A stretch of DNA of 64,000 nt from Tolypothrix carrinoi HA7290-LM1 (GTDB taxonomy: Bacteria; Cyanobacteriota; Cyanobacteriia; Cyanobacteriales; Nostocaceae): positions 40,283 through 104,282 of the forward strand of contig JAHHIK010000012.1 of assembly GCA_019358935.1 (NCBI GenBank), read 5' to 3'. The position numbers and the translations under genes are program-made. Each line of letters opens with the position of its first letter. Within the stretch, counting starts at the first letter, position 1. The notes beneath the pieces are model-generated. The model ran no database searches, had not been told where the DNA came from, and saw nothing but the letters and a program-made list of their open reading frames with translations. This document shows, piece by piece, positions 1,082 through 5,714 of the stretch.

Positions 1082-2557
1082 ATGACTTCATCTGCTCTTG
1101 TAAAAACTGAGTACGAAGCGATTATTGGTTTAGAAACCCATTGTCAGCTCAGTACTAACACCAAGATTTTCTCTAATAGTTCTACGGCTTTTGGTGCCGA
1201 CCCCAATACTAACATTGACCCGGTTTGTATGGGTCTACCTGGGGTATTACCCGTACTCAACGAAAAAGTATTAGAATACGCTGTGAAAGCGGGTTTAGCC
1301 CTAAATTGCCAAATCGCTAAATATAGCAAGTTTGACCGCAAACAGTATTTTTATCCGGATTTACCGAAAAATTACCAAATTTCTCAATACGACTTACCGA
1401 TCGCTGAACATGGCTGGTTAGAAATTGAGTTAGTCGATGCTGATGGTAATCCGCTGCGGAAAAAAATCGGCATCACTCGTCTGCACATGGAAGAAGATGC
1501 GGGAAAATTAGTTCACGCGGGAAGCGATCGCCTTAGTGGTTCTACTTATTCTCTGGTAGACTACAATCGAGCAGGTGTGCCTTTGGTAGAAATTGTCTCC
1601 GAACCAGATTTGCGTTCCGGACAAGAAGCTGCTGAATATGCTCAAGAATTACGCCGCATTGTCCGCTATATCGGCGTGAGTGATGGTAACATGCAAGAAG
1701 GTTCTCTCCGCTGTGATGTCAACATCTCTGTGCGTCCGATTGGACAAAAAGAGTTTGGCACGAAGGTGGAAATTAAAAACATGAACTCTTTCAATGCGAT
1801 CCAAAGAGCGATAGAATACGAAATTGAACGCCAAATAGCCGCAGTAGAAGCTGGCGATCGCATTATCCAAGAAACTCGTCTTTGGGAAGAAACTTCTCAA
1901 CGCACTATTAGTATGCGCGTTAAAGAAGGAAGCAGCGATTATCGCTATTTCCCAGAACCAGATTTAGCACCGATTGAGGTAACAAACGAACAATTAGCCA
2001 ATTGGCGCAGTACACTACCAGAATTACCAGCAGAAAAACGTCATCGTTATGAATCTGATTTGGGACTTTCACCTTACGATGCGCGGGTGTTAACTGAGGA
2101 AAGCAATGTAGCTGCGTATTTTGAAGAAGCGATCGCACTTGGTGCAAATCCCAAACAAGCTGCTAACTGGATTATGGGCGATATCGCCGCATACCTCAAC
2201 AAGCAAAAACTCAGCATCACCGAAATTGCCCTTACTCCTACCAACTTAGCAAAAGTTATCACTCTCATTGAAAAGGGTACCATCGGCAGTAACAAAGCAA
2301 AAGAAAAATTACCAGAGTTGCTAGCTGGTAATTCTCCCGATGAAGTATTCAAAGGTGAAGAAAAAATCTCTGACGCTAGCGTACTCGAACCCATTATCGA
2401 CCAAATCATCGCCGCCAATCCCAAAGAACTAGAAAAATACAAAAGCGGTAAAACCAATCTCAAAGGCTTCTTTGTTGGACAAGTTCTCAAACAAACTGGT
2501 GGACGTGCCGATCCAAAACTGACTAACGAATTAGTAGACCAAAAGTTGAACGCTTAG
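1082..2557 (+). CDS. gatB: Asp-tRNA(Asn)/Glu-tRNA(Gln) amidotransferase subunit B
   Basis: IGLETHCQL, HMEEDAGK, DYNRAGVPLVEIVSEP, SLRCDVNIS, YRYFPEPDL motifs. Confidence 0.98.
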   Translation: MTSSALVKTEYEAIIGLETHCQLSTNTKIFSNSSTAFGADPNTNIDPVCMGLPGVLPVLNEKVLEYAVKAGLALNCQIAKYSKFDRKQYFYPDLPKNYQISQYDLPIAEHGWLEIELVDADGNPLRKKIGITRLHMEEDAGKLVHAGSDRLSGSTYSLVDYNRAGVPLVEIVSEPDLRSGQEAAEYAQELRRIVRYIGVSDGNMQEGSLRCDVNISVRPIGQKEFGTKVEIKNMNSFNAIQRAIEYEIERQIAAVEAGDRIIQETRLWEETSQRTISMRVKEGSSDYRYFPEPDLAPIEVTNEQLANWRSTLPELPAEKRHRYESDLGLSPYDARVLTEESNVAAYFEEAIALGANPKQAANWIMGDIAAYLNKQKLSITEIALTPTNLAKVITLIEKGTIGSNKAKEKLPELLAGNSPDEVFKGEEKISDASVLEPIIDQIIAANPKELEKYKSGKTNLKGFFVGQVLKQTGGRADPKLTNELVDQKLNA

Positions 2558-2810: not shown

Positions 2811-2910
2811 TTGACTGTATTTTCCCCGATACTTCTTCACAATAACTTGATAAAACATACATTAAAGATGGGTGCAACACCTCAGTCCAAAAATGCTATA
2901 CTGTGATAAT

Positions 2911-2959
2911 TAGATGCACCCTGATGATCTGGAGAGCTGCCCAAGTGGCTCTCCTTTTT
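2911..2959 (+). ncRNA. Putative ~50-nt sRNA, copy 1 of 3
   Basis: TG-C-TATACT extended -10 upstream; TAGATGCACCCTGATGATCT leader; hairpin GGAGAGCTGC-CCAA-GTGGCTCTCC followed by T5. Confidence 0.7.
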
Positions 2960-3023
2960 CGTTTTTAGAATTCTGGGAGAAATTGCGTCGAACTGATTTT
3001 CCGAAAAAACTTGTTAGGGGGTA

Positions 3024-3051
3024 TTGCACCTCACCCCAGATGTGATAGTAT
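3024..3051 (+). promoter_or_regulatory. Sigma70-like promoter of sRNA copy 2 (identical copy at about 3259-3286)
   Basis: TTGCAC-N16-TAGTAT with TG extension, about 8 nt upstream of the conserved leader. Confidence 0.6.
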
Positions 3052-3059
3052 ATGTTAAG

Positions 3060-3108
3060 TAGATGCACCCTGATGATCTGGAGAGCCACCCAAGTAGCTC
3101 TCCTTTTT
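3060..3108 (+). ncRNA. Putative ~50-nt sRNA, copy 2 of 3
   Basis: Same leader; hairpin GGAGAGCCAC-CCAA-GTAGCTCTCC followed by T5; part of a ~105-bp exact repeat with copy 3. Confidence 0.7.
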
Positions 3109-3294
3109 CATTTTTATGGTTGCCAAAGAAATTGCTTACAGTCATATCTTGCACATACCACAGTCAACGCAGAAAATAGAAAGTGGTCTAATCGGTGTAT
3201 GTGAAAACCACTGTAATCCAAAATCTCAAATCAAAAATAAAAAACTTGTTAGGGGGTATTGCACCTCACCCCAGATGTGATAGTATATGTTAAG

Positions 3295-3343
3295 TAGATG
3301 CACCCTGATGATCTGGAGAGCCACCCAAGTAGCTCTCCTTTTT
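3295..3343 (+). ncRNA. Putative ~50-nt sRNA, copy 3 of 3
   Basis: Identical to copy 2 including promoter, 235 bp downstream. Confidence 0.7.
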
Positions 3344-3483
3344 CGTTTTTGTCCTAAATTTGCCTAGACAAGCGTTTCAAATAGGCAAGTTATTAATAAC
3401 TAACAAATTATCACTCTTTGGGTAACGAAGACTTGATATAATCGCCCCTCAAGCAAAGAGTAATAGTTGAAGGGATACGAATA

Positions 3484-4797
3484 ATGAATGACTGGCAGGA
3501 AATTACTGGTGGTGTGACAGCACCTAGAGGTTATCGGGCAGCAGGAATTACCGCAGGGTTAAAACCTTCGGGATTGCCGGATTTGGCTTTGATAGTATCA
3601 GATGTAGAGGCGATCGCAGCTGGTGTATTCACCACTTGCCAAGTAAAAGCCGCGTGTGTAGATTATTGTCGCCAACGTTTGCTCTCAAAGCATAGCGCTC
3701 GTGCTATTCTCTGCAACGCGGGACAAGCAAATGCAGCAACGGGTAACGAAGGCTGGTTAGATGCTTTAGAATGTGCGATGCTATTAGGGCAAGAGCTAAA
3801 TATGCCTTCAGAATCGATTCTGCTTGCTTCTACAGGTGTAATCGGTCAAAGAATTAAGATGGAACCTTTACGCAGTGGGATTCCCAAGCTGGTGGCAGCA
3901 TTATCAGAAACAGGTTCAGATGCAGCAGCTGGGGCGATTATTACTACCGATTTAGTCACAAAATCCATTGCATTAGAAACAAGTATAGGCGATCGCCCGG
4001 TGCGAATTGGTGGCATTGCCAAAGGTTCGGGGATGATTCATCCGAATATGGCAACGATGTTAGCATTTGTTACTTGTGATGCCGCAGTTGCACCTACTCT
4101 GTGGCAACAAATGTTAAGTCGCGCAGCTGATAGAAGCTTTAATTCGATTACCGTGGATGGTGATACTAGTACCAATGATAGCTTGATAGCGCTTGCTAAC
4201 GGTCAATCTCGCACCCCAGCAATTACAGAAATGGGTGCAGAAGCGGAAAAATTAGAAGCGATGTTAACAGCAGTATGCCAGCATTTAGCGAAAGCGATCG
4301 CTCGTGATGGTGAAGGTGCAACTTGTCTGATTGAAGTGCAAGTTAGTGGGGCAACCGATGAACAAGCAGCTAATCAAATCGCTAAAACCATCGCCGGCTC
4401 ATCTTTAGTTAAGTCTGCCATATTTGGACGCGATCCAAACTGGGGACGCATCGCTGCTGCTGCTGGACGTGCAGGTATTCCTTTTGAGCAAGAAAACCTG
4501 CAAATTAAATTAGGGGATTTCTTGATGATGGAGAATGGTCAACCAATACCATTTGATCGCAAAGCAGCGAGTGCTTATTTAAAACAAGCAGCAGCGAATG
4601 CTTCTAAACCACAAGATATGATGGCTACGGATATGAGCAATGATTTGTCGGGGGATAGAAGTACAATCAAGGCTCAAAGTTTAGATAATCCGGTGATAAT
4701 TGCAGTCAGCGTTGGTAATGGACACGGTTCGGGTAAAGCTTGGGGTTGTGATTTGAGTTACGACTATGTGAAAATTAACGCCGAGTATACAACTTAA
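3484..4797 (+). CDS. argJ: Bifunctional ornithine acetyltransferase/N-acetylglutamate synthase
   Basis: AKGSGMIHPNMATML autocleavage motif, DGDTSTND, DGEGAT, GCDLSYDYVKINAEY. Confidence 0.97.
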   Translation: MNDWQEITGGVTAPRGYRAAGITAGLKPSGLPDLALIVSDVEAIAAGVFTTCQVKAACVDYCRQRLLSKHSARAILCNAGQANAATGNEGWLDALECAMLLGQELNMPSESILLASTGVIGQRIKMEPLRSGIPKLVAALSETGSDAAAGAIITTDLVTKSIALETSIGDRPVRIGGIAKGSGMIHPNMATMLAFVTCDAAVAPTLWQQMLSRAADRSFNSITVDGDTSTNDSLIALANGQSRTPAITEMGAEAEKLEAMLTAVCQHLAKAIARDGEGATCLIEVQVSGATDEQAANQIAKTIAGSSLVKSAIFGRDPNWGRIAAAAGRAGIPFEQENLQIKLGDFLMMENGQPIPFDRKAASAYLKQAAANASKPQDMMATDMSNDLSGDRSTIKAQSLDNPVIIAVSVGNGHGSGKAWGCDLSYDYVKINAEYTT

Positions 4798-4862: not shown

Positions 4863-5714
4863 ATGGCTAAAGTAGCAGATATCGGTGGGAAGCGTTTAAT
4901 TAGTTTAGCTCCAGATGCTTGGGTAAAATGGGTAACGCAGTCCCCCGATGTCTTGGCTAGAGAAATTCTGGCTTCGGAATTTCAGTGGATTAGCCGAGAA
5001 AGCGATGTTGTAGTTAAAGCTTACCATCCGCAAATCGGGGATTTTTTGGTGTTGAACGAGTTGCAATTGCGTTACAACACCCGCTTACCTCGACGAATGC
5101 GTGCTTATGCGGCACTGGCAGAGGAACGCTACAATTTACCAGTTTACCCGGTACTGATTAATATTTTGCCTCCACCGGAGACAATGGAAATAGTCAGCAA
5201 TTATGAATCCCAGGTTTTAGGGTTACAAGCGCGTCAAGATTATCGGGTGATTAATTTGTGGGAAGTTGACGCACAGATTGTTTTTCAACAACCTCTACCA
5301 TCCTTACTTCCTTTTGTACCTGTGTTGAAAGGTGGGGATGAAATCGCGGTGGTACAGCTTGCTGTACAAGCTTTACGTGCTGATGAACAGTTAAATGAAT
5401 TAGAACCGCTATTAGCCTTTTTTGCTAGCTTTGTATTGTCTAGTCGTTTAGTGCAGCAAATTATGAGGTGGGATATGGCTGTGTTACAAGAATCTCCCTG
5501 GTATCAAGAAATTTTGCAGCAAGGAGAAACACGAGGTTTACTTTCTGGTATTGAATTGGGTTTGGAACTAAAATTTGGTGCTGAAGGGTTACAGTTAATG
5601 CCAGAAATCTCGCAAATTACCGATTTAGATGTGTTAAAGACGATTCGCGAAGGATTGCGGACAATGAATTCTCTAGAGGAAATTAGGCAAATTTATACAA
5701 TAAATGAAACATGA
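4863..5714 (+). CDS. Rpn-family recombination-promoting nuclease/putative transposase (PD-(D/E)xK)
   Basis: RESDVVVK..LNELQ..RMRAYAA motif; C-terminal ESPWYQEILQQG..LELKFG tail typical of the cyanobacterial family. Confidence 0.8.
   Translation: MAKVADIGGKRLISLAPDAWVKWVTQSPDVLAREILASEFQWISRESDVVVKAYHPQIGDFLVLNELQLRYNTRLPRRMRAYAALAEERYNLPVYPVLINILPPPETMEIVSNYESQVLGLQARQDYRVINLWEVDAQIVFQQPLPSLLPFVPVLKGGDEIAVVQLAVQALRADEQLNELEPLLAFFASFVLSSRLVQQIMRWDMAVLQESPWYQEILQQGETRGLLSGIELGLELKFGAEGLQLMPEISQITDLDVLKTIREGLRTMNSLEEIRQIYTINET

Follow-up and report, generated by a model that had tools for sequence, protein, structure and literature searches.

A small-RNA array between gatB and argJ in Tolypothrix: an NsiR1 sister group with probable HetR operators and patU as predicted target

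Other examples exist of sibling small RNAs (sRNAs) that share a seed. In such sets, a class discussed in PMC9045159, near-identical RNAs with separate promoters answer different inputs and act on common targets. The closest described relative of the RNAs reported here is NsiR1 of PCC 7120, which acts by base pairing on alr3234 and hetF (PMC9045159). A BLASTn survey from 2016 found NsiR1 homologs in 38 genomes, 11 of them outside the heterocyst formers (PMC4734099 Table S3), and the wide range of the seed is thus partly known already. On the protein side, HetR requires GGGnnnnnCCC, and its site at hetP is the 17-mer GAGGGGTCTAACCCCTC (PMC4192349); the box of the HetR-activated hetZ promoter is centred at about −45 when counted from the 40-mer in PMC3610870. 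PatU3 is an anti-sigma factor of HetZ and is co-transcribed with hetZ (PMC13342950).

The window analysed here, a stretch of 64,000 nucleotides from Tolypothrix carrinoi HA7290-LM1, carries three promoter–RNA–terminator units in tandem between gatB (1082–2557, plus strand; NCBIfam NF004012, 699 bits against a cut-off of 338) and argJ (3484–4797, plus strand; TIGR00120, 522 bits against a cut-off of 298), the conserved upstream and downstream neighbours; the array described in the initial annotation is real, with two corrections given below. The units start with TAGATGCACCCTGATGATCT at 2911, 3060 and 3295, and a search of the 7.96 Mb genome with up to three mismatches gave no matches to the 20-nt leader beyond these three. 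Each copy has its own extended −10 (TGn followed by TANNNT, ending 9 nt ahead of the leader), as had been claimed: TGc TATACT at 2894–2902, TGa TAGTAT at 3043–3051 and the same element at 3278–3286, all on the plus strand, with the hexamers at 2897–2902, 3046–3051 and 3281–3286. A generic promoter scan missed all three array promoters because they have no consensus −35. The expected product of each unit is an RNA of ~50 nt, predicted on the plus strand at 2909–2959 (seed 2911–2925, terminator stem 2931–2954, U-tail), 3058–3108 (seed 3059–3074, stem 3080–3103) and 3293–3343 (seed 3294–3309, stem 3315–3338); we infer the RNA start from the spacing to the −10 and from the 5′ end of NsiR1. Each unit very probably yields a discrete transcribed RNA.

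Over 106 bp copies 2 and 3 do not differ (3004–3109 and 3239–3344, an offset of 235 bp), in agreement with the exact repeat of ~105 bp noted earlier. The stem of every unit is GGAGAGC/GCTCTCC, closed by a CCAA loop and followed by T5. The folding energy is −18.7 kcal/mol for copy 1 (z = −3.4) and −14.6 kcal/mol for copies 2 and 3 (z = −1.9 and −2.3), and in the first two copies a weak 5′ hairpin holds part of the seed. The initial annotation held that the stem substitutions of copy 1 keep pairing; copy 1 is indeed completely paired, but the departure from pairing, a C–A mismatch, sits in copies 2 and 3. Downstream of the array a TATAAT at 3437–3442 (plus strand; implied UTR ~35 nt) is likely to be the own −10 of argJ, in which case argJ would not depend on the array; argJ of PCC 7120 has its own TSS and a 36-nt UTR (PMC10287535). 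Two features flank the locus. Right after the gatB stop, at 2557–2815, there is a long 9-bp tandem repeat of the GGAGGACAA type followed by its approximate inverted complement, which could form a long hairpin; the Rfam miRNA matches in the window all come from this G/A-rich repeat and were discarded as spurious. At 4863–5714, 3′ of argJ, there is a 283-residue open reading frame with no Pfam match that is present in four related loci.

The first 15–16 nt of the array RNAs are identical to those of the NsiR1 copies in the same genome and to NsiR1 of PCC 7120 (PMC4734099 Table S3), bearing out the likeness first noted from the letters, and the sequences diverge afterwards. The conserved NsiR1 5′ sequence GUAGAUGCACCCUGAU is matched at 16 of 16 positions in copies 2 and 3 and at 15 of 16 in copy 1. 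The array resembles NsiR1 of PCC 7120 in being made of individually promoted tandem copies of a short RNA with an intrinsic terminator. It differs in the length of the RNA (~50 nt compared with ~60 nt), in the stem (GAGAG/CUCUC compared with CCCC/GGGG), in the promoter (a sigma-70-type extended −10 with a HetR-like box, where NsiR1 has the DIF1 promoter of sigma-HetZ) and in position, the array lying between gatB and argJ rather than at hetF. The DIF1 motif TCCGGA was found in 0 of 246 promoters of the array group, and the statement that neither the hetF location nor DIF1 applies here is therefore correct. The array RNA is also kept in a family that lacks hetR and hetZ, where DIF1-type copies were not seen.

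The Rfam model of NsiR1 (RF02399) gives 26.7 bits for copy 2, 25.3 for copy 3 and 16.8 for the remaining unit, against a gathering cut-off of 39, and no family reached its cut-off in an Rfam scan of the window. The true NsiR1 copies of the Tolypothrix genome score 46.5–68.9 bits with the same model. They comprise a canonical set on contig C171 beside hetF, with eight copies above the cut-off, and further single copies on contigs C84 and C122, and each of these copies carries TCCGGA, either perfect or with a single mismatch. It could be argued that the array units are dispersed, diverged NsiR1 copies with no regulatory identity of their own, as the shared 5′ 15–16 nt, the full-length alignment to the Rfam model (E of 0.008–2.3) and the inclusion of 11 non-heterocyst genomes among the 38 with NsiR1 'homologs' in the 2016 survey (PMC4734099) would suggest. 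We consider this very improbable given the scores below the gathering cut-off, the different terminator, the lack of DIF1 in all 246 promoters, and the separate conserved locus and promoter class found beside true NsiR1 in the same genomes. By the tests applied, the units form a sister group of NsiR1 and are not members of it, and the proposal of a sibling family with the NsiR1 seed under different promoter control is supported. The group is conserved and apparently undescribed until now. Compared with other sibling sets, its two inputs would be successive steps of one cascade, HetR and then sigma-HetZ.

Several NsiR1-type loci deserve mention in their own right. The solo copies on C84 (29696–29746) and C122 (19742–19799) have DIF1-type promoters, lie away from hetF and have an altered seed end. 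Nine-copy DIF1-promoted arrays of the NsiR1 type occur on C171 and in two genomes (G032, contig C8; G062, contig C13) of f32, a family other than that of the window, where they adjoin a peptidase-like gene of ~590–620 residues; a similar gene flanks the NsiR1/hetF array of Tolypothrix.

A dyad of the form GGG-N5-C(C/A)C-CTC lies at a fixed place over the −35 in all three copies. The probable HetR boxes (no strand assigned) are GAT GGG TGCAA CAC CTC at 2867–2883, matching the hetP site at ten of 12 arm positions, AGG GGG TATTG CAC CTC at 3016–3032, matching at nine of 12, and an identical copy of the latter at 3251–3267; each has one mismatch, CCC to CAC, and the box centre is ~35 nt upstream of the RNA start. 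The initial annotation had proposed a GGGGGT..ACCCC dyad over the −35 of copies 2 and 3 as an operator. The operator reading is supported, as the element matches a HetR site, but its boundaries were misdrawn, the conserved dyad being the one given above and also present in copy 1. The promoter of copy 1, described as different, does differ in its letters but is of the same class.

The promoter set contains 269 copies, a further 16 having been dropped for a broken T run or truncation, and yields 246 unique promoters outside family f17. A GGG-N5-CCC box with at most one mismatch is found in 240 of these (4.5% in shuffles) and the extended −10 TGn-TANNNT in 211. As at the HetR-bound hetP and hetZ promoters, the GGG-N5-CCC core is flanked by hetP-like GAGGGG/CCCCTC arms, with all 12 arm positions matching in 28 of the 246; the array differs from those promoters in driving a non-coding RNA and in the predicted box centre, ~−35 compared with ~−45 for hetZ. 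The box is exact in 42 of 44 promoters from non-heterocyst families that have hetR. The presence of hetR was checked for the genomes to which we gave G handles. Family f17 has hetR in 0 of 13 genomes yet keeps one seed copy in 11 of the 13, almost always beside gatB or argJ; its promoters retain the extended −10, and the box is found in 0 of the 11 loci (nine unique). As f17 is one lineage, this loss counts as about one event. Among other hetR-negative families, the box is degenerate or displaced in f8 (three loci) and has one mismatch in f10 (one locus), and the copies inspected in f33 are of the DIF1 type. Genome G009 has intact boxes and no hetR match; its assembly is 92% complete and G046, of the same family, has hetR. 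Given the kinship of the genomes, the loss of the box with hetR amounts to few events, not dozens. We consider it likely, with some confidence from this pattern, that HetR binds the box at the array promoters. The 26 ChIP regions tabulated for PCC 7120 in PMC4192349 include none at alr2073/argJ. Upstream of the box, ~63–52 nt before the RNA start, many copies (for example L130 and L136–L142) have a CTT-n-A-n-AAAAA element that is retained in the hetR-less f17 and is a candidate UP element or second regulator site.

Because the −35 lies within the box, activation and repression by HetR are nearly equally likely, with activation of the array RNA only slightly favoured. Promoters with a TG-extended −10 tolerate an activator bound over the −35, which speaks against repression; the overlap with the −35 equally suggests repression. 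If HetR represses the array RNA, the RNA would be made where HetR is low or inhibited and would be shut off when NsiR1 appears, which would then take over the common targets. We judge this the less likely case, although several observations are in its favour: the box is one helical turn nearer to the start than that of the activated hetZ promoter, and in f17 both the RNA and its extended −10 persist in the absence of HetR, suggesting that the core promoter may suffice. In vegetative cells HetR has negative effects too, with alr2242 derepressed in a hetR mutant (PMC4192349), whereas in a reconstituted system it activates hetZ and hetP (PMC13342950). The hetZ, hetP and hetR promoters of the Tolypothrix genome were searched for a box with which to calibrate the sign, and none was recovered.

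The exact leader is found in at least 119 loci and at least 161 copies in named genomes, and the record titles of the matches are almost all Nostocales or unclassified cyanobacteria. Synteny was scored for the 80 named loci with flanks, 39 loci being too short: gatB and/or argJ adjoin the RNA in all 80, with gatB the nearest gene upstream in 60 and argJ the nearest downstream in 60. The leader is thus conserved together with its neighbourhood, which the initial annotation had put forward as a check. The RNA occupies the gatB/argJ locus in other families and orders as well. Within the order, a 24-nt pattern with two mismatches is present in 62 of 251 genomes, and its reversed control in none. 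From 51 copies we built a covariance model, which has matches in 41 of 150 genomes across the phylum, among them four families from other orders; four of the matches are weak (E ≃ 3 × 10⁻⁴), and three of these four cover the terminator half only. In the terminator stem 92% of cells are paired and there are 21 two-sided changes, above every slid control; these changes are confined to the inner three pairs, and the outer stem letters are conserved more than pairing requires. Both promoter classes, with the HetR box and with DIF1, are present in many families beyond that of the window.

An exact 14-mer of the seed is found in 183 of 251 genomes (reversed control, 0). Two or more copies are present in 143 of 144 genomes with both hetR and hetZ, in 15 of 16 with hetZ only, in one of five with hetR only and in one of 86 with neither, that is, in 158 of 160 hetZ-positive compared with two of 91 hetZ-negative genomes; the multi-copy seed tracks hetZ more closely than hetR. 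The hetZ query also retrieves a hetZ paralogue, and f33 has only short patU-like remnants. At least one seed copy is found in 19 of the 86 genomes with neither gene, some of these being chance matches within open reading frames. In family f14 a genome can have as many as 18 copies of the seed, scattered over several clusters. Genome G214, which is near-complete and belongs to the family of the window, has NsiR1-like matches and a best match to the new model of E = 4 × 10⁻⁴, and is possibly a natural loss of the array RNA. In genomes G201 and G233 (loci L150 and L155) the RNA gene points the opposite way to gatB and argJ.

The fixed position between gatB and argJ, together with an ATG at nt 4–6 of the RNA, raises the question of whether the units are cis elements (a gatB terminator, or an argJ leader or attenuator) or encode a leaderless peptide beginning MHPDDLES. 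Both readings were rejected and have little to commend them: a separate promoter precedes every copy, argJ is served by a −10/TSS of its own, the unit is inverted against both genes in G201 and G233 and is dispersed to unrelated loci elsewhere, and the frame has no stop ahead of the terminator and takes indels of 1–3 nt.

Four of 23 listed runs of RNA contigs from relatives were examined. Two have no match, and the others include promoter and spacer DNA; one 34-nt contig starts at the position corresponding to 2911, within a contig set that also spans promoter and spacer DNA, and the contigs therefore do not speak for a separate RNA. The table of transcription units for PCC 7120 in PMC10287535 has nothing between the thrC and argJ TSSs; one of our loci, L032, has the layout thrC–RNA–argJ, the thrC/argJ order of PCC 7120. 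In Table S3 of PMC4734099 the leader is present in NsiR1 only. That study's pipeline was restricted to TSSs with 200 nt or more to the next gene. In L023, L032 and L034, which have no gatB upstream, argJ starts 159–195 nt after the RNA start, which could explain the absence of the RNA there. Our literature search found no description of the array group and no link between NsiR1 and patU, though some earlier work may mention the locus.

Target prediction, which had also been suggested for the array RNA, points to the gene directly 3′ of hetZ (hetZ being above the cut-off of NF037963), whose start region is complementary to the seed. This gene has no Pfam or NCBIfam match and is named patU here from its position (PMC7377430). 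The predicted site, GGTGCATCTAC, lies 3–14 nt upstream of the patU ATG, within the 3′ end of hetZ. In a genome-wide duplex scan with the 16-nt seed the patU start ranks second of 12,319 ATG starts, at −23.1 (mean −7.5, s.d. 2.8); with the full RNA and accessibility it ranks sixth, at −19.6, among the 2,500 best-pairing of 12,315 starts. NsiR1 of the same genome pairs with the patU start as well as the array RNA does (−19.1 and −19.6). Seventy hetZ loci were fetched and 59 parsed, and in 45 of the 59 no window of the hetZ gene pairs better than the hetZ–patU junction; five unparsed loci also show the site, and a second parser recovered 51 of the 70, with 38 pairing at −15 kcal/mol or better. 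At one third-codon position of the site all 41 of 41 unique junctions have A, whether the codon stands for Ala, Thr, Val, Ser or another amino acid; the 99 fourfold columns of hetZ have a mean of 0.47, and only three reach 0.9. The site is retained in six of eight genomes in which hetZ stops before or inside it. These alignments show conservation of the patU site in step with the seed, also at positions that are silent or non-coding. As for trans-acting base-pairing sRNAs, a complementary site over a target start is conserved, here by computation only and in 45 of 59 loci.

Other constraints on the site are possible. It forms the spacer of a promoter with the TCCGGA motif, probably that from which sigma-HetZ transcribes patU5–patU3 (PMC13342950), and it overlaps hetZ codons and the patU ribosome-binding site; no parsed locus departs from TCC(G/T)GA or from its distance to the patU start. 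In 21 DIF1 spacers of the NsiR1 type the letters of the patU site are not conserved. From the TCCGGA promoter in the 3′ end of hetZ (L185, 3148–3179), transcripts would begin shortly 3′ of the patU ATG and would thus lack both the predicted RNA site and the patU start codon. The site is weak in 14 of the 59 loci, including both f21 and both f5 loci, although f21 and f5 carry the RNA, and single genomes of f1, f11, f14, f27 and f38 are without a good site. Family f17 has hetZ in 0 of 13 and patU in 0 of five genomes, yet its seed is perfect; patU cannot therefore be the sole target, and others must exist. A shuffled-seed control for the patU site gave 0 of 300, a figure biased by the site having been chosen for complementarity in the Tolypothrix genome. 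The chances that patU is a real target of the array RNA are, in our estimate, evenly balanced.

Our main reading, to which we give a probability of about 0.5, is that the array encodes a sister RNA of NsiR1 with a likely HetR-bound promoter, whose seed is predicted to pair over the patU ribosome-binding region and would lower PatU. HetR would bind the box and switch on a trans-acting RNA of ~50 nt, the TG-extended −10 making a −35 contact dispensable and the tandem copies raising the dose. The 5′ seed would then occlude the patU ribosome-binding region on the hetZ–patU message, synthesis of the anti-sigma factor would drop relative to sigma-HetZ, and the co-transcribed pair would be tipped towards the sigma factor. 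NsiR1, made from DIF1 promoters recognised by sigma-HetZ, would reinforce the patU step, the array RNA and NsiR1 thus forming the HetR-driven and sigma-HetZ-driven arms of one post-transcriptional control.

The near-invariance of the seed across many families, where mRNA sites vary, would also fit an invariant 5′ motif that is a protein-binding element, for example for PatR or PatU3, with the RNA titrating protein and pairing with no mRNA and with the patU site conserved through constraints on promoter, RBS or coding sequence. In CLIP-seq NsiR1 is bound by PatR, PatU3 binds RNA, and PatR homologs occur across cyanobacteria (PMC11797042); this could explain the retention in f17. The outer stem letters, conserved beyond pairing needs, and the lack of a shared mRNA target in one f17 genome lean the same way. 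We nevertheless regard titration as improbable, as NsiR1 acts by base pairing on both of the targets named above (PMC9045159) and, at the patU site, silent and non-coding positions are kept in register with the seed.

Should patU pairing be correct, it would explain how the co-transcribed sigma factor HetZ escapes the anti-sigma factor PatU. The array would probably combine a HetR operator with a predicted patU target at the core of the differentiation circuit, and it is a widely conserved candidate for an RNA as direct HetR target, also in lineages beyond the heterocyst-forming family. More tentatively, and on balance somewhat doubtful, the HetR/sigma-HetZ/PatU core may contain an unrecognised ancient RNA layer in which one seed under two promoter classes silences patU through feed-forward and positive-feedback arms, and does so, too, in filamentous cyanobacteria that lie outside the family of heterocyst formers; the conserved target of the whole NsiR1 superfamily would then be patU and neither hetF nor alr3234. 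As the seed is shared, published manipulations of NsiR1, whether antisense depletion or overexpression, could have acted on or through the sister RNA.

Other candidate targets were considered. The single hetP-like gene of the Tolypothrix genome pairs with the seed at −5.4; most of 24 hetP-like genes of relatives are weak, the best reaching −15 to −17, and as a conserved target they were rejected as patchy (nine of 27 genomes; four of 13 in f17). A Gfo/Idh/MocA oxidoreductase, fifth in the Tolypothrix ranking, was rejected because its site is unconserved (one of 26 at −15 or better). In f17, exact 11-mer searches in five genomes and 30 of 40 degenerate sites in one genome gave no target in common with Tolypothrix. 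In the Tolypothrix genome only, the best seed match is a 2,160-residue fatty-acyl-AMP-ligase/PKS-like gene, and a RecQ-like gene is another candidate. A protein of 148 residues with no Pfam match (L405, 117–560, minus strand, contig C11) has a seed-complementary site abutting its ATG. The gene is present in seven of 30 genomes, and the site is kept in both of the two f1 relatives that have the gene (−20.0 and −15.5) and is weaker elsewhere, making it a second candidate target.
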